From contig OY970359.1 in NCBI GenBank assembly GCA_963718665.1, positions 1,024,001-1,088,000 of the forward strand: a stretch of DNA of 64,000 bases, written 5' to 3'. Origin of the DNA: an uncultured Phycisphaerales bacterium (GTDB lineage Bacteria > Planctomycetota > Phycisphaerae > Sedimentisphaerales > Anaerobacaceae). A program made the translations under genes and the position numbers. This document shows positions 9,485-15,602 of the stretch, piece after piece. Numbering within the stretch: the first letter of the stretch is position 1; each line of letters opens with the position of its first letter. The notes under the pieces were generated by a model that was not told the origin of the DNA, did not search any database, and saw only the letters and a list, made by a program, of their open reading frames with translations.

Positions 9485-12343
9485 TTACTCGATTTTCAAA
9501 GGCGCCGTCAAGATTATATGGGATCCTTTGCCTCTTTTTGATTCAATTTCGAGCTTGCCTCCTATGTGCCTGAGTCGTTCACGAACACTGAAGAGCCCGA
9601 GGCCCTTTGGTTTTTCCGACAGCACTGATGCGTCAAAACCTTTGCCGTCATCCTCAACTGTTACCTGTATATCGTTATTGTTCCTGGTAATAGCGACCCT
9701 GACCAGTTTTGCTTTTGCGTGCTTTGCTATATTTATAAGCATTTCGCGAATTGACCGGTACAGAAGTATTTTTACGGGGGTGGTTAACGGTTTGGGTTCT
9801 TCGCTGTTGCGGAATGAGTATTCCAGCTTGTGCTCTTCGCAAAACCGTTCAAGCAACTCTTCTATCGCGATTTCAAATCCGAGGGTGTAAAGCGTCGGCG
9901 GACTAAGGTCAAAGGTCAGTGTTCTTGTCTGTTTGACCGCCTCGCTGATGTTCTCGCTGATATTTTTCAGGGATTCGGCAACTTGTGGCGGGGCAGATTT
10001 TTGCAGGATTCCCAGCTCTCTTTTTGAGAAGGCGAGTATAGGACCAAGCGAATCGTGCAGGGCCGTGGCGATTTCGTGGCGTTCGCGTTCTTCGGTGAGG
10101 AGAAGTTCGGCGGTAAGAAGCCGGAGCTGTTTCTGGTCGGCGATAACCCTTTCCTGAGCGAGTTTTCGTTCGGTGATATCGCGGAAAACGATTTGCGCAG
10201 CCGGCCTGTTTTCATAGGCAAGCGGCGTGGCGGCAACTTCAACATCTATAGTGGTTCTGTCAACACGCAAAAATATATTTTCCCTGAGGGGCAGGGCCTT
10301 TTGCTTTCTGCGGAGAAACTCCAACTGCCTGTGCGTGCGTTTCCTGTAGTCAGGGTGAACAAAATCAAGAATCGACTTTCCGACAAGCTCCGCGGATTTT
10401 TTTGCGCCGAGCAGTTTGGCCGCGGCGGTGTTTATAAACACTATTTTGTCGTCCCTTTCGACGCCGATGCCTTCGGGAGAAAGCTCTACAAGCTGACGAT
10501 AACGCTCCTCGCTTTGTCGCAATTCCACTTCCACGTCAAACCTGTGGACGGCCTCTCCGATAAGCATCGCCATATTTTCTATAAATTCTACGGTTTGGGC
10601 TGGCGTTTTGTTTTCCTGCTTGTCAGCAAGATGAATCGCCCCGAGCACTTTGTCCCTGTAACGTATGGGAACAACGGCAAGAGAGGCAAAGCCGTAATGC
10701 ATACAATGACCGCGATATCGTGCCTTGTTCTTTTCGGGCAGCGAGTTAAAAAACTCAAGCGTATTATCGCAGCGGAAGGAACCTTTCGATGTCATTACCA
10801 GTGCATCCTGGGGTTCGGATTTCTGCGTAATGACTCGCATACAGGCGCAGGTATCGGTTTTCAAAGAGAGGATGCTTTCTATCGCCAGAAAATCCTTAGT
10901 AAAGCCAATCTGAGATTCGTATGGTATAAGCCCATCGGAATTAGTCAGTCGGATACCTACGCATTGACAACCGCTCCAGTCGCGGACAGCCCTGACAACC
11001 GAATCAAGATATTCCTTTCTTACAGATTTTTGCGCGAACAGTTCGAGCAGGACGTTTGTAATCCGCGAGAGTTTTTCTATTCTGTTGTGCTCGGTAACGT
11101 CACGGGCGACAGCAAAGACACCCTGTACCTGCCCTGCTTCATTTTTATAAAGCGTGGCGTTGTAGAGGACGTCTGTCGTATGGCCCGATATATGCCGGAT
11201 AGTGAGCGGATAATCCTTAACCATACCTTCCGCAAGCGCCTTTTTGTAACTGTCCTTTGCTTTTTGGGGTTCCGTAAAGTAATCCGAGAAATCGCTGCCT
11301 ACAAGATTCTGCTTCTGGACGCCTGTCACCAGCTCGGTTGCCCTGTTGATATCGGTAATTTTTCCTTCCGGGCTGATTGTAACAAAGGGGTCAAGAGCTG
11401 CTTCGAGAAGACCGCGTGCATACAGCGACGCGGAACGGAACGCCTCTTCCGCACGGACCCGCTGCATTATCTGTTTTTGCAGCTCCAGCACCAGTTCGCC
11501 AAGCTCGGCGGTTCGCTCTTTGACCCGCGTATCAAGCTCATCGTGCGCCTTACGGAGCGCCTCCTCGGCCCGTGCGCGGTCCGTGATGTCGCGGATGTTA
11601 CACTGGATTACTTTCGTGTGCTCTACCGTGTACACGTTACTAACGAATTCCACCGCTATACGGCGTCCGTCTTTTGTTTCGAGCGGCAGATTTTCGTAGC
11701 GTACGTATCCCCTGGTTTGCAATTTCAGAAACGCTTCTTTTGATTCTACAATGTCTTTGAAAAGACCAATCTCCCAGAGCTTCTTATCTAAAAACTCCTC
11801 GCGAGAATAGCCCAATATATCTTCTACGAATGGATTAACGTCAACTATCTGCCCGGAGTCCGCATCAAGGATTAGTATCCCATCACGGGCCGCCTCAAAA
11901 AGCCGGCGATAACGGAGTTCGGAAACCAGCATCGCATCCTCGGCGTTTTTTCGCTCGATGGAATAACGAATGACACGGGTTATGGTTCGTCCGTCGGTCT
12001 GGCCTTTTATGAGGTAATCCTGAACGCCTGTTCGCACGGCTTCGACGCCCGTATTCTCGTCATCGACCCCGGTAAGCACCACAATCGGCAAATCAGGAGA
12101 GATGCTCCTGACCTCTCGAACGGTATTAAGGCCCGAGCTGTCGGGCAAGGTCAAATCCAGCAGCATCGCATCGGGATGATTGTTTTTAAGGTGTTCTTTG
12201 GCCTCGTTCAGCGATTGAACCACACTGATGGAAATATCTGTGGTGCCGCTTGACAAAATGTTTTCCTGCAGCAGCACAGCATCTGAAGCGCTGTCTTCGA
12301 CAAGCACTATCTGCAAGGGTTTTATCGATTTTGTATTTTTCAT
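9485..12343 (-). CDS. Hybrid sensor kinase REC-PAS-PAS-GAF-PAS-HisKA_3-HATPase
   Basis: N-terminal REC, three PAS domains, GAF, ERERHEIATALHD H-box, EMLINIAKHA, DDGKGF, GLGL. Confidence 0.92.
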   Translation of the reverse strand: MKNTKSIKPLQIVLVEDSASDAVLLQENILSSGTTDISISVVQSLNEAKEHLKNNHPDAMLLDLTLPDSSGLNTVREVRSISPDLPIVVLTGVDDENTGVEAVRTGVQDYLIKGQTDGRTITRVIRYSIERKNAEDAMLVSELRYRRLFEAARDGILILDADSGQIVDVNPFVEDILGYSREEFLDKKLWEIGLFKDIVESKEAFLKLQTRGYVRYENLPLETKDGRRIAVEFVSNVYTVEHTKVIQCNIRDITDRARAEEALRKAHDELDTRVKERTAELGELVLELQKQIMQRVRAEEAFRSASLYARGLLEAALDPFVTISPEGKITDINRATELVTGVQKQNLVGSDFSDYFTEPQKAKDSYKKALAEGMVKDYPLTIRHISGHTTDVLYNATLYKNEAGQVQGVFAVARDVTEHNRIEKLSRITNVLLELFAQKSVRKEYLDSVVRAVRDWSGCQCVGIRLTNSDGLIPYESQIGFTKDFLAIESILSLKTDTCACMRVITQKSEPQDALVMTSKGSFRCDNTLEFFNSLPEKNKARYRGHCMHYGFASLAVVPIRYRDKVLGAIHLADKQENKTPAQTVEFIENMAMLIGEAVHRFDVEVELRQSEERYRQLVELSPEGIGVERDDKIVFINTAAAKLLGAKKSAELVGKSILDFVHPDYRKRTHRQLEFLRRKQKALPLRENIFLRVDRTTIDVEVAATPLAYENRPAAQIVFRDITERKLAQERVIADQKQLRLLTAELLLTEERERHEIATALHDSLGPILAFSKRELGILQKSAPPQVAESLKNISENISEAVKQTRTLTFDLSPPTLYTLGFEIAIEELLERFCEEHKLEYSFRNSEEPKPLTTPVKILLYRSIREMLINIAKHAKAKLVRVAITRNNNDIQVTVEDDGKGFDASVLSEKPKGLGLFSVRERLRHIGGKLEIESKRGKGSHIILTAPLKIE

Positions 12344-12347
12344 ATTC

Positions 12348-12794
12348 TCAGGTCTTTGGCGGCAGCGTAACGACCGTCAGCCAGAATTTTTCAATTGTTT
12401 TTACCACGTCGATGAAATGCTCAAAATCAACAGGTTTTGTGATGTAACAATTCGCGTTAAACTCATAGGATTGCAGCACGTCCTTGTCGGCGTGAGATGT
12501 GGTCAACACAATCACCGGGATGGTCTTGAGAGAAGGGTCGTTTTTCATTTCCCTCAGGACATCTCGACCATCCTTGCGGGGCAAATTCAGGTCTAACATT
12601 ATAAGGTCAGGCCTCGTGGCTTTGGCGTATTTACCCTGCCGTCTTAAAAAGTTTATTGCTTCGACGCCGTCTTCGACGTGGTTGAGATTATTGGCTATTT
12701 TGCCTGCCTCAAGCGCTTCCATGGTCAGTTTTGCGTCGCTGGGACTATCCTCAACGAGCAATATTTCGATTGGTTTTGCATCAGACAGATTCAT
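12348..12794 (-). CDS. Single-domain response regulator (Rcp1-like)
   Basis: [42 protein letters not shown]. Confidence 0.92.
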
Positions 12795-13104
12795 CCAGTT
12801 AGACCTCCTTTTATTCTGTTTCTAATGTATCTTTTTCCCATGCCTGTCTTTAAATATCTTTCTCTACGGAAAGAATCGTCTCGATTAAGGCATGCTTCAC
12901 AATACACCAATTTAACGGGTCCCCTGTTTCGCGTACAAAACACTTCTCCTTTTCTATGCTGTTCCAATCTTTCCCTTAAATCACTTGTGGCACCTGTATA
13001 AAATGTTCCAGTTTTTTCACATATAAGGACGTATGTATAAAACCACTGAGTCCCGTTAGAAATCGAAGATTTTCCAACATGAGGAGGTCTAACTGGATTC
13101 ATCC
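12788..13104 (-). mobile_element. Putative minimal GIY-YIG insertion cassette with 17-bp TIRs and 9-bp direct repeat
   Basis: ATCCAGTTAGACCTCCT (12793-12809) is the exact reverse complement of 13082-13098; GATTCATCC is directly repeated at 12788-12796 and 13096-13104. Confidence 0.7.
12791..13102 (-). CDS. GIY-YIG nuclease family protein
   Basis: [34 protein letters not shown]: conserved Y, Y, G, R, H, E. Confidence 0.9.
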
Positions 13105-13178
13105 TGTTATATCTCCTTTATCTGTTTTTAATTTGTAAAAGCCCGGCCATGAGTAATTATACTTCATTTTTAGGCGAT

Positions 13179-15602
13179 TCAAGCCCCTTCTATATCAGGA
13201 ACAGTAAAATAAAACGTGGAACCACGTCCTGGCGCGGATTCTACCCAAATTCTTCCCCCGTGTCGTTCGACAATTTTCTTGCAGATTGACAACCCGATAC
13301 CGGTTCCGGCGTAAGTTTTACGGGTATGCAGCCGCTGGAAAATCATAAATATACGCTCAGCGTATTGCGGCTCAATACCAATACCGTTATCACGAACGGC
13401 AAACCGCCAGCAGGCATCCTGACGGATGGCGCTGACGTGAATTTGCGGGGTCTGGTCGCCGCGGAATTTTATGGCGTTGCCGATGAGGTTCTGGAACAAT
13501 CGTGTAAGCTGTAGGTCGTCGAAATAAACGGTCGGCAAATCATCAGCGGTAATTTTTGCGCCCGATTCCTGTATTCCCGCCTGAAGACGCGCTAATGCCT
13601 CGTCGAAGACCTCCTTGGAATTGACCTTCTGAGGTTTTTTACCTTGTGTGCCGACGCGTGAATATTCGAGCAGGCCGTTGATAAGCGACTGCATTCGTTT
13701 GGCACCGTCTATGGTGAAATTCATATATTCGTTTGTTTTTTCGTCGAGGGATTTTTCAAGGTTTCGCCTGAGCAATTCGACAAAGCCGGAGATCGCCCTG
13801 AGCGGCTCCTGTAAATCGTGGCTGGCCACGTATGCGAACTGTTCGAGGTCCTTGTTCGACCGGGACAACTCTTCCGTTCGATGTTTAACGAGGTCTTCCA
13901 GGTGCAGCCGATATTGTTCCAGTTCTGCTTCGGTTGCCTTTTTCTCGGTTATATCACGTGCGGCGACAAAAACGCCCTGGACCTGGCCTGCCTCGTTTTT
14001 ATAGACAGCGGAGTTACAAATCACGTCTGTCAGCCGGCCGTCATGACGCCGAATCGTCAGCGGATAATCAGTGACAAATCCCTCGGCAAAAACCTGCTGG
14101 TAACCTTCTCTTGCCTTTTGGGGTTCGGTGAAATAGTCGGAAAAGCCCGTTCCAATAAGCTTCTCACGCGCCACGCCCGTTACAAGTTCCGTCGCTTTGT
14201 TGACATCGGTAATTTTCCCTTCGGGGCTGATTGTTACCAGCGGGTCGAGAGATGCTTCAAGCAGGCCGCGTGCATACAGCGATGCGGAACGGGATGCTTC
14301 TTCCGCACGAATTCGCTGCTGGACCTGCTTTTGCAGTTCCGTCACAGTTTTATCCAAGTCGGCGGTTCGCTCTTTGACTCTAATCTCCAGCTCATCACGC
14401 GACTTTCGCAGCGCCTCTTCTGCCTTTTTGCGCTCGATGATTTCTCTGTTCAATTCGTCACGGGAAGCGGTGGTCTGCTTTAAATCGAGTGTCATTTTGT
14501 CAAACGACCTCGAAAGCTGACCTATCTCATCCTTAAGGTTGTTACCGAGTTTATAATCCAGATTACCGCTTCCGATAATCGCGGCGCCTTCGGAAAGTCG
14601 TTTTATTGGCTCAGAAATGGAATGGGCGATGGAAAATGCTGTTATGCCGCTTAGAACAATAACAATAACCAAGATTATAGCTGCCAGATTTCTTAAATTT
14701 GTTACATCGACAAATGCTTCTTTGGTATCAATCTTAGCGACCAATCCCCAATCGAGGGAGGGAATATATCGCCAGGCAGCGATAACTTTCTTTCCCCTGT
14801 AGTCAATTGCCTGGCCGGAGCTGGTTCTGCCCTGAATAGCTTCTTGAATAGGGCGGCCGCTCTCTTCTCCTAAAGATACTCTTCTTTTAAGGGCCGCCTG
14901 TGGGTCATGCCTGAGAGGGTTTAAGAATTCCGCCTGATTGCCGATTCTCCTGGCCACCAGGACCTCGCCCGTATTACCCAGTCCGGTTGTATCCTGTATA
15001 AGGTTATAAATGGGGGTCATATCTATTTCAAAAGCAATGACCCCGATAAAAACACCGTTAAAATCAGAGGCCGGAGCGGCAAGCAGCGTTTCGAATCTTT
15101 TGTCTTCGGCTGTGTCGAAATATACATCCGAAAAGTAAATTCTGCTTTTCCCCTCAGCGAAGGCCTTCTGTTCAGCGTCAAGGCCATTAGGCATATCTTT
15201 TAAGTAATGCCCCGGTCTAAGTGAGTAAACGACCTTGCCTTGCAGATTAACCAGCATAATATCAGCCAGGTCTGAAACCGACTGCATCTGTTGTAATTGC
15301 GCATCGAGCATTTTCCTGGCAGCGAGGAACTCCGGATTATTCGGGTCGTCGGCAAGCCGGATTAGTACAGGAAGATTTTTCTTAATGTCGTAAAAACCCT
15401 GGGCTATCTCCATGCGTGCCTTTAATCCGGCAAAATATGCTTCTATTCTATCCGCTCTAAAAACAGCAAGGTCCCGCAACTGTGAAAAGCGATTGGTCTC
15501 GAGGGAATTTTTATAATTAGTGAAGGTCAAGGCACTTACAAAGATTAAAGGAATCGAGGCAATCGCCAGAAACATGATGGCAAGTTTCAATCTTATAGAC
15601 AT
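13179..15602 (-). CDS. Membrane sensor histidine kinase (Cache-like, HAMP, PAS, HisKA, HATPase)
   Basis: Two TM helices, DEIGQLSRSF HAMP, PAS, FAYVASHDLQEPLR, NLIGNAIKF, GTGIGLSIC. Confidence 0.93.
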   Translation of the reverse strand: MSIRLKLAIMFLAIASIPLIFVSALTFTNYKNSLETNRFSQLRDLAVFRADRIEAYFAGLKARMEIAQGFYDIKKNLPVLIRLADDPNNPEFLAARKMLDAQLQQMQSVSDLADIMLVNLQGKVVYSLRPGHYLKDMPNGLDAEQKAFAEGKSRIYFSDVYFDTAEDKRFETLLAAPASDFNGVFIGVIAFEIDMTPIYNLIQDTTGLGNTGEVLVARRIGNQAEFLNPLRHDPQAALKRRVSLGEESGRPIQEAIQGRTSSGQAIDYRGKKVIAAWRYIPSLDWGLVAKIDTKEAFVDVTNLRNLAAIILVIVIVLSGITAFSIAHSISEPIKRLSEGAAIIGSGNLDYKLGNNLKDEIGQLSRSFDKMTLDLKQTTASRDELNREIIERKKAEEALRKSRDELEIRVKERTADLDKTVTELQKQVQQRIRAEEASRSASLYARGLLEASLDPLVTISPEGKITDVNKATELVTGVAREKLIGTGFSDYFTEPQKAREGYQQVFAEGFVTDYPLTIRRHDGRLTDVICNSAVYKNEAGQVQGVFVAARDITEKKATEAELEQYRLHLEDLVKHRTEELSRSNKDLEQFAYVASHDLQEPLRAISGFVELLRRNLEKSLDEKTNEYMNFTIDGAKRMQSLINGLLEYSRVGTQGKKPQKVNSKEVFDEALARLQAGIQESGAKITADDLPTVYFDDLQLTRLFQNLIGNAIKFRGDQTPQIHVSAIRQDACWRFAVRDNGIGIEPQYAERIFMIFQRLHTRKTYAGTGIGLSICKKIVERHGGRIWVESAPGRGSTFYFTVPDIEGA

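Follow-up and report, generated by a model that had tools for sequence, protein, structure and literature searches.

The window analysed here is a 64,000-nucleotide stretch of the genome (G000) of an uncultured Phycisphaerales bacterium. It contains a small GIY-YIG nuclease gene, enclosed by inverted repeats, between a histidine kinase gene and the response regulator gene that follows it. The locus raises the question of whether this gene is a mobile element in its own right and, if so, what moves it and whether it seeks out start codons. The features are as follows.

13179..15602, minus strand: upstream host histidine kinase, dCache-HAMP-PAS by Pfam
13103..13137, minus strand: upstream ribosome-binding site (RBS) region, with AAGGAG at 13113-13118; now the nuclease RBS, and a lookalike of a decayed or converted right end
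13098..13101, minus strand: left 4-bp target copy, TGAA; joined to the A at 13102, it makes up the start codon of the nuclease
13085..13097, minus strand: left terminal inverted repeat, the 13-bp family stem, with perfect pairing here over 13082-13098; encodes N-P-V-R-P
13051..13082, minus strand: nested gene-less 32-bp miniature, in frame, with the right end intact and the left end decayed (9/12 match)
12794..13097, minus strand: insertion element proper, 304 bp, being the 268-bp form of its subclade plus a 36-nt nested insertion
12791..13102, minus strand: single-domain GIY-YIG nuclease gene, 103 aa (MNPVR...GGLTG), with a predicted UPF0213/Slx1-like fold
12804..12809, minus strand: AGGAGG Shine-Dalgarno (SD) sequence supplied by the element, 9 nt 5' of the regulator ATG
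12794..12806, minus strand: right terminal inverted repeat, with perfect pairing over 12793-12809; encodes G-L-T-G and ends at 12794 with the base that serves as A of the regulator ATG
12790..12793, minus strand: right 4-bp target copy, TGAA; contains TGA as nuclease stop and contributes TG to the rebuilt ATG of the regulator
12348..12794, minus strand: host response regulator, receiver domain (PF00072, E 1.4e-19); its start codon is the insertion site

The 17-bp perfect inverted repeats that an initial annotation had described around the GIY-YIG gene were present at 12793-12809 and 13082-13098; when the 1-kb region was dinucleotide-shuffled 300 times, perfect inverted repeats reached at most 13 bp. 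The same annotation had proposed a 9-bp direct repeat at the ends. Copies of GGATGAATC do lie 308 bp apart (12788-12796 and 13096-13104), within a direct repeat that really extends over 24 nt at 88% identity, but comparison with the family reduced the true duplication to the 4 bp TGAA. Boundaries were set from 92 distinct homologous elements together with empty alleles and give an element of 304 bp (12794-13097). In-silico removal of 308 bp yielded RBS-ATG-AAT-CTG-TCT, as had been predicted, although the RBS thereby "restored" resembles a worn or converted right end of the element. The distal repeat was confirmed to encode the nuclease C-terminus and to supply a new AGGAGG and an overlapping ATGA (12791-12794), in which the nuclease stop overlaps the regulator ATG. 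The nuclease start codon (13098..13101 plus the A at 13102) is the original start of the host gene. A third repeat copy, described there as able to pair with the proximal end, was found at 13051-13060, but as the right end of the nested miniature and not as a designed alternative hairpin.

Contigs from four sequencing runs of one study cover the element, and both junctions are spanned by one contig in X1 and by another in X2. No joint skipping the element was found in the contigs of those four runs, from which rare variants are dropped. The element is therefore not an assembly artefact. An empty or excised form was likewise not seen in these sequencing contigs, where rare variants are lost. 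The element had no Rfam match, and a scan of it for promoters and terminators remained at chance level.

We searched 60 relatives and read alleles only where the kinase-regulator junction was readable. The element occupies the same base in G006 and G019 as in the window genome, so that the insertion is common to three species, with copies 94-99% identical; it is old at this site. It is absent from seven genus members (G001, G002, G005, G007, G011, G018 and G020), and three genomes outside the genus (G040, G046 and G059) have the same ATGAA start without it. G002 and G007 retain the spacer of about 80 bp seen in the window with a single ATGAAT. These are the empty alleles that the initial annotation had proposed to look for at this junction in relatives and, as both have the same spacer, the locus is not one that always carries the gene. 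From these filled and empty alleles we regard mobility of the element as almost certain. That it is instead an ordinary operon gene, with repeats that arose by chance or act as a translational control hairpin, might be argued from the insertion shared by three species and from the folding of the whole unit, which exceeds that of shuffles (z -3.7). The empty alleles, together with the family-wide ends and duplications described below, leave this explanation hardly any probability.

One of the empty genomes, G020, still retains the right end of the element, which points to a secondary loss that may have occurred by recombination between the two SD-ATG copies. At the same site a metagenome contig (L081) carries an 82%-identical element preceded by about 45 bp of the 3' end of an older copy. 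When compared with right ends of the window's subclade, the upstream RBS region of the window scored 31.0, as against a mean of 16.5 (sd 2.9) for 390 SD-bearing starts, and was exceeded only by the element's own right end, to which it is identical at 15 of 20 positions (15 other sites, 3-11). The same score was just 20-22 in G007, G006 and G019. Probably, then, the "restored" RBS is either host sequence that an element end has overwritten in part or the decayed remnant of such an end. Flank trees were mosaic and do not give the order of events at the site. Over window positions 9485-15602 and their orthologues, kinase and regulator gene trees disagreed across the genus; the locus itself is mosaic, and the kinase-regulator spacer ranged from 9 to 115 bp among orthologues, with unrelated repeat insertions.

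To place the element in a family we examined 134 loci (48 from GTDB, 80 from metagenomes, 4 viral and 2 from the search of relatives); the metagenome loci were the best 80 of 569, and 10 of the 134 were truncated or unmatched. Among the 117 loci with at least 50% identity, exact CCNGTTAG and CTAACNGG cores were found at both ends in 75, and cores with at most one mismatch in 95. The search for GIY-YIG homologues suggested by the initial annotation thus found 95 of 117 bounded by the same repeats, in unrelated genes. Hosts include Planctomycetota, Omnitrophota, Patescibacteria, Actinomycetota and Balneolota. The 92 distinct elements measure 265-340 bp and have complementary ends at the inner N in 89 and at the outer base in 87. 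At 85 flank-deduplicated sites (imperfectly so, since L003 and L004 are both the window locus), freely varying positions of the two ends pair at 0.91-0.96, compared with 0.40-0.56 expected. Such pairing suggests that the ends either form a base-paired stem about 13 bp long or are kept complementary because one is copied from the other. No neighbouring gene recurred in more than 5 of the 85 loci. A close homologue (E<1e-22) was present in only 7 of 24 genus genomes; plasmids gave two distant matches, neither covering 80% of the query, and one of the four loci on viral contigs was close.

Several side observations concern the sites occupied. Tandem, nested or re-inserted copies were found beside older ends at L082, L085, L109 and L144 and at G000:C1:1470203-1470316 and 1838902, and new copies often adjoin the element's own ends. 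One clade (L031, L112, L114 and L157) lies in the RHSFATH/LGH region of tyrosine-recombinase genes, which from their motifs we take to be integron-integrase-like; L031 and L114 have clean 4-nt duplications and L112 an apparent adjacent deletion. Four elements (L134, L145, L150 and L167) share a position near the 3' end of one gene type, presumably ORF6N-like, and three of these seem to have gained 5 nt and not 4. More distant GIY-YIG genes (L035, L037, L038 and L046; 32-46% identity) lie between a tRNA-like sequence and its partial copy, which is a different architecture.

The junctions follow a 4-nt rule. A 4-nt duplication was present at 34 of the 85 sites (shuffles, mean 12 and maximum 20) and, where the right flank was not TGAA, at 13 of 39 compared with 1.1 in shuffles. 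Five sites had a 3-nt duplication, and at 46 the flanks differed. The net gain on insertion was the element plus 4 nt, rarely 3, and the family target is a YRRR 4-mer, mostly TGAA. A duplication of 9 or 6 bp was excluded by sites such as ATGAG-C...G-TGAG, which are compatible with a 4-nt duplication only.

The differing flanks are more than drift alone would be expected to leave. In the 46 such sites a pyrimidine-centred left flank was combined with a purine-centred right flank 26 times and the reverse never occurred; the same asymmetry was seen in miniatures (15:0). At G000 site 2105455, in a gene presumably hypE-like from its motif, the filled allele reads TTTA, element, TGAA. In all 14 aligned empty alleles, of 19 loci given, only the left 4-mer was present (TTTA in 13, TTAA in 1). 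As the right TGAA is missing from all of these, it arrived with the element. A similar element occupies this site in G004. An RNase H gene starts at the right TGAA of L025, and hence the left 4-mer there is the foreign one, whereas in L150 the host 4-mer is on the left. An IS608-like rule in which the right 4-mer always comes from the donor was therefore ruled out. When read on the strand that carries the YRRR target, the order was always foreign 4-mer, element, target. Left flanks were common to nearest relatives at 0.42 versus 0.22 by chance (p 0.004). Significance was not reached in a subset of 66 rows from which the CTTG clade was missing (p 0.12), and first-base sharing was not significant either (p 0.14). 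The added 4 nt are thus either duplicated target or foreign DNA, the latter probably derived from the donor.

Gene-less relatives of the element bear on the same question. G000 contains ten units of 59-114 bp with the same ends, seven of them in frame (63 or 66 nt added) within ORFs of at least 250 codons; from 130 bp to 4 kb, the nuclease element was the only unit in this genome bounded by the terminal inverted repeats. Empty orthologues of the miniatures mostly differed by the element plus 4 nt, with 4-mers of CCCG (4 genomes, CCTG in two), CGCG (4) and CGAG (2, CGGG in one), and one empty orthologue, in G002, is an ATGAG start codon. Inexact fits to this gain occurred at site 863344 (offsets of +1 to -3) and at 1840983 (-7 in two genomes). 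The nested miniature of the window (13051-13082) adds 36 nt compared with the 268-bp relatives L083, L084 and L005 and is flanked by CTCC (13083-13086) and CTCA (13047-13050); the homologue P0011 begins MNPVRPQWFY, the predicted sequence before nesting. With filled and empty alleles, the same ends in unrelated contexts and gene-less miniatures, the initial reading of the locus as an insertion element was upheld.

Among 250 genomes of the phylum, miniatures were found in 7, the nuclease (<1e-22) in 10 and both in 5 (Fisher p 7e-7, a value overstated because the threshold was picked post hoc and three of the five genomes belong to one family). Two of the seven miniature-positive genomes had no close nuclease, and the same was true of the genus members G007, G015 and G017. 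Other repeats were noted in passing. At G000:C1:1379926, in a gene presumably rlmN-like, there is a miniature in G000, and the orthologues (L340-L344) include three unrelated repeat insertions, in G017, G007 and G002; judged by these sequences, the site is an insertion hot spot. A sister repeat type, CCCGTGAGAT...ATCTCACGGG, likewise with YNNR flanks, lies at G000:C1 positions 17069, 490797, 926934, 1106587, 1271171, 1377939, 1835178, 1839045, 1840765, 1842444 and 2219833, and GIY-YIG genes about 49% identical in G008, G020 and G021 (L307-L309) are followed by a repeat of this sister type. Further over-represented 10-mers in G000 repeats, for example CTAACGACTA, AGCCACAGAG and AGCGTACAGC, indicate additional repeat families.

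Whether start codons are targeted was assessed in a subclade defined by its ends alone, namely an SD-like right end, the defining trait of the window's subclade, and ACC behind the left core. Its 18 rows represent 17 independent sites. Every site makes an RTG at the right end, and this RTG opens at least 60 codons at 16 of 17 sites (null 25%). At the left junction a start codon is present in 16 of 17. A Pfam domain starts within the first 57 residues in 14 of 16 downstream genes, the window locus being excluded, and these genes represent at least 12 unrelated families. The claim that the nuclease takes over the host RBS and ATG while the element rebuilds both for the host gene was thus borne out across the subclade. 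As a rule for the whole family, start-codon targeting was rejected. Of the 67 rows that do not belong to the SD group and include insertions within genes, only 16 have a start codon opening an ORF of at least 60 codons, which is close to the 25% null. The initial claim of start-codon targeting therefore applies to the window's subclade, whereas the wider family targets its YRRR 4-mer, also inside genes. Starts make up about 10% of host-tolerated TGA(A/G) sites in G000 (609/6169, by rough gene calls and with G000 as a proxy; the binomial comparison took 17 of 18 as the observed count), and host survival alone is thus insufficient for the pattern; selection on an element lacking its own start, or true targeting, must contribute. 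Choice of target by homology to the SD end was tried as an explanation and was weak (6.0 versus 5.2 matches of 19, p 0.06). With the termini included, the SD subclade was monophyletic at 99/93 support, whereas quick core-only trees required 2 changes; the subclade is clustered, its monophyly not proven.

One alternative is homing, in which a free-standing endonuclease gene would spread by break repair only into empty alleles of one and the same site. The fold is that of homing nucleases, and the kinase-regulator site has received a second, 82%-identical element in L081. Nevertheless, the starts of at least 12 unrelated gene families are occupied, and one genome holds two copies at different genes (L005 and L013). 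Terminal inverted repeats, duplications and gene-less miniatures are moreover foreign to homing, and the NCBIfam model of group I intron endonucleases, TIGR01453, gave 16 bits against a cut-off of 56. We consider homing very improbable.

The encoded protein matches Pfam GIY-YIG (PF01541) above cut-off at E 6.7e-12, and its sequence matches in the PDB are 1zg2 (E 6e-12), 1ywl and Slx1. A structure predicted with a pLDDT of 89.9 matched 1zg2 in Foldseek (E 5e-4), 7wme is also among the best sequence and fold matches, and the modelled fold is closest to UPF0213, HIGLE and Slx1; the ESM Atlas returned GIY-YIG clusters only. The profile match to UPF0213-type proteins ends near residue 65, before their conserved C-terminal helix. 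Nearly every homologue (83-84 of 84) retains the active-site residues Tyr, Tyr, Gly, Arg and Glu. Of 19 pairs (66 of 85 cores used), 12 were saturated and the remaining 7 gave dN/dS of 0.06-0.14. Among the 120 matches listed, homologues are mostly 90-91 aa, compared with 103 aa in the window, and 95 combine a PVR(P/L) start motif with an LTG end, so that both repeats are built into the protein.

We think it probable that the family is a minimal insertion sequence (IS) whose sole protein, the single-domain GIY-YIG nuclease, is the mobiliser, with gene-less miniatures as derivatives. In this scheme one strand of the element would form a stem-loop, with its two ends paired as the stem. A branch- or flap-cutting enzyme like Slx1 or Ssn, the nuclease would recognise this stem and place two nicks, one in the donor some 4 nt beyond the 5' end and one in the target at the 4-mer, after which host polymerase and ligase would join in the transferred strand. 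If the 4-nt donor flap were trimmed and the gap filled, a true duplication would result; if the flap were kept, a foreign 4-mer would remain on one side. Such single-strand transfer, with the flap trimmed or kept, seems the simplest reading of the junctions. Elements of the SD subclade would land on a start codon and be translated from the host RBS, the downstream gene being re-coupled through the ATGA overlap, and loss by recombination between the two SD-ATG copies would leave a right-end scar. The broader proposal is that a GIY-YIG protein of about 90 residues is the only enzyme of a new class of prokaryotic transposon, which moves by one-strand transfer with a 4-nt flap, drives miniatures and in one clade evolved targeting of starts; we lean towards it, slightly less firmly. 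All 87 large units carried the nuclease, a figure partly built in because the loci were collected via the nuclease. To our knowledge, GIY-YIG enzymes are known only as hydrolases.

The units could instead be non-autonomous and be moved in trans by another transposase or recombinase, for example a piggyBac-like DDE enzyme, the GIY-YIG gene being a conserved passenger that aids persistence or spread. Terminal inverted repeats and a 4-nt stagger with retained donor bases match the geometry of piggyBac, which has a 4-nt donor overhang (PMC7351741). Miniatures in genomes lacking a close nuclease also suit a mover in trans, as does the presence in G000 of two Y1 transposases and up to seven tyrosine-recombinase matches. 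On the other hand, no transposase-bearing unit with these ends was found in G000 (to 4 kb) or among 320 loci, and no transposase recurs as a neighbour in cis (at most 5 of 85 loci per neighbour). The two Y1 genes (G000:C1:442794 and 1274084; L321 and L322) are RAYT-like and have GC-rich hairpin repeats of their own, each different from the ends described here. The one-sided asymmetry of 26:0 is also better suited to a single transferred strand than to double-strand cut-and-paste. As the family spans several phyla, a trans factor would need an equal host range. We rate this explanation as possible but rather unlikely.

A further explanation is a domesticated system like Ssn, in which a host ssDNA nuclease reads genome-wide hairpin repeats and limits incoming DNA, the repeats spreading as a by-product. 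SsnA, a GIY-YIG protein of 94 aa, binds ssDNA at its own hairpin repeat and cleaves a few nucleotides beyond the repeat, and Chenal et al. 2025 (PMC11893778) liken NTS-ssnA-NTS to an IS. The present nuclease similarly is single-domain, has its own flanking repeats and is under purifying selection. The SRM motif, by its published degenerate pattern, was absent from window positions 12590-13300 and from within 100 bp of all 85 sites; a plasmid match used as a stand-in for SsnA had no SRM either. Furthermore, the repeats are not stand-alone hairpins but bound a single unit at its two ends, with duplication of the target, and presence is patchy, at unrelated sites including the inside of genes and with a close homologue in just 7 of 24 genus genomes. 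Such a system is improbable here. A second single-domain GIY-YIG gene in G000 (G000:C1:543300-543640; L002) is 33% identical and has neither terminal inverted repeats nor SRM; its WRREWK...NPEW tail we take to be Ssn/cd10448-like.

If the nuclease is the mobiliser, GIY-YIG would join the DDE, HUH, tyrosine and serine enzymes as a catalyst of transposition, an autonomous element would need only about 270-300 bp, and the published idea that single-domain GIY-YIG genes with repeats are domesticated transposons would become directly testable. The family explains many annotations of "putative endonuclease / excinuclease C" and the short in-frame PVR...ISNG peptides in proteins of uncultivated bacteria. 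An insertion that rebuilds a start codon can rewrite the RBS and start without killing the gene and, if start targeting is real, would be a near-silent insertion that captures the host RBS. The locus itself contributes a series of filled, empty and scarred alleles, a nested miniature and an asymmetric rule for foreign 4-mers. No published description of the family was found in the literature searched, with most subscription journals, ISfinder and bioRxiv supplements outside its scope; the main text of Di Nocera 2013 (PMC3733652) contained neither "GIY" nor a motif match. Even with a trans factor as the mover, both the family and its 4-nt rule for junctions appear to be undescribed.

Compared with known systems, the family resembles several in part. 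Ssn (cd10448; NTS/SRM) likewise combines a small single-domain GIY-YIG gene, within the <150 aa of that group (103 aa here), with its own flanking repeat and many gene-less genomic repeats. The repeat of Ssn is a different one. Those of the present family terminate a single unit in inverted orientation, and this unit leaves a 4-nt footprint in the target and has empty alleles; the available parts of PMC11893778 report no transposition, duplication or rebuilding of start codons for Ssn.

IS200/IS605 elements and RAYT/REPIN systems use an HUH/Y1 transposase and subterminal hairpins, without terminal inverted repeats or duplication. The likeness lies in very small size, recognition of hairpins, a probable single-strand route, gene-less derivatives and insertion at short motifs, but the present family has terminal inverted repeats and frequent true duplications and no HUH domain in the element. 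With classical IS elements and their miniature derivatives (MITEs) it shares terminal inverted repeats, a short duplication at some of its sites (4 nt at 34 and 3 nt at 5 of 85) and pairs of autonomous and miniature forms. Unlike them, it carries only PF01541, with no DDE transposase and no other cargo, is complete in 265-340 bp and has foreign 4-mers on one defined side only.

UPF0213/YhbQ, Slx1 and HIGLE nucleases are the best sequence and fold matches to the element nuclease, and we know of no description of them as mobile. Rickettsia palindromic elements are miniatures in frame within coding genes, as here, but are unrelated in sequence, whereas the miniatures of G000 belong with a parent element that has the same ends and carries the nuclease. 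Homing endonuclease genes would be expected at one cognate site and with an intron or intein or a long DNA-binding domain, in contrast to the many unrelated sites found, and neither Rfam nor TIGR01453 at its cut-off supports that assignment. In integron cassettes, attC is a hairpin of some 57 bp or longer, RYYYAAC...GTTRRRY, that follows the gene. The element ends do contain GTTAGAC/GTCTAAC cores, but no downstream hairpin of attC length was evident, and Rfam gave no match. On the features tested, the family works like an IS/MITE pair and falls outside the DDE insertion sequences, IS200/IS605, homing nucleases and Ssn/SRM.
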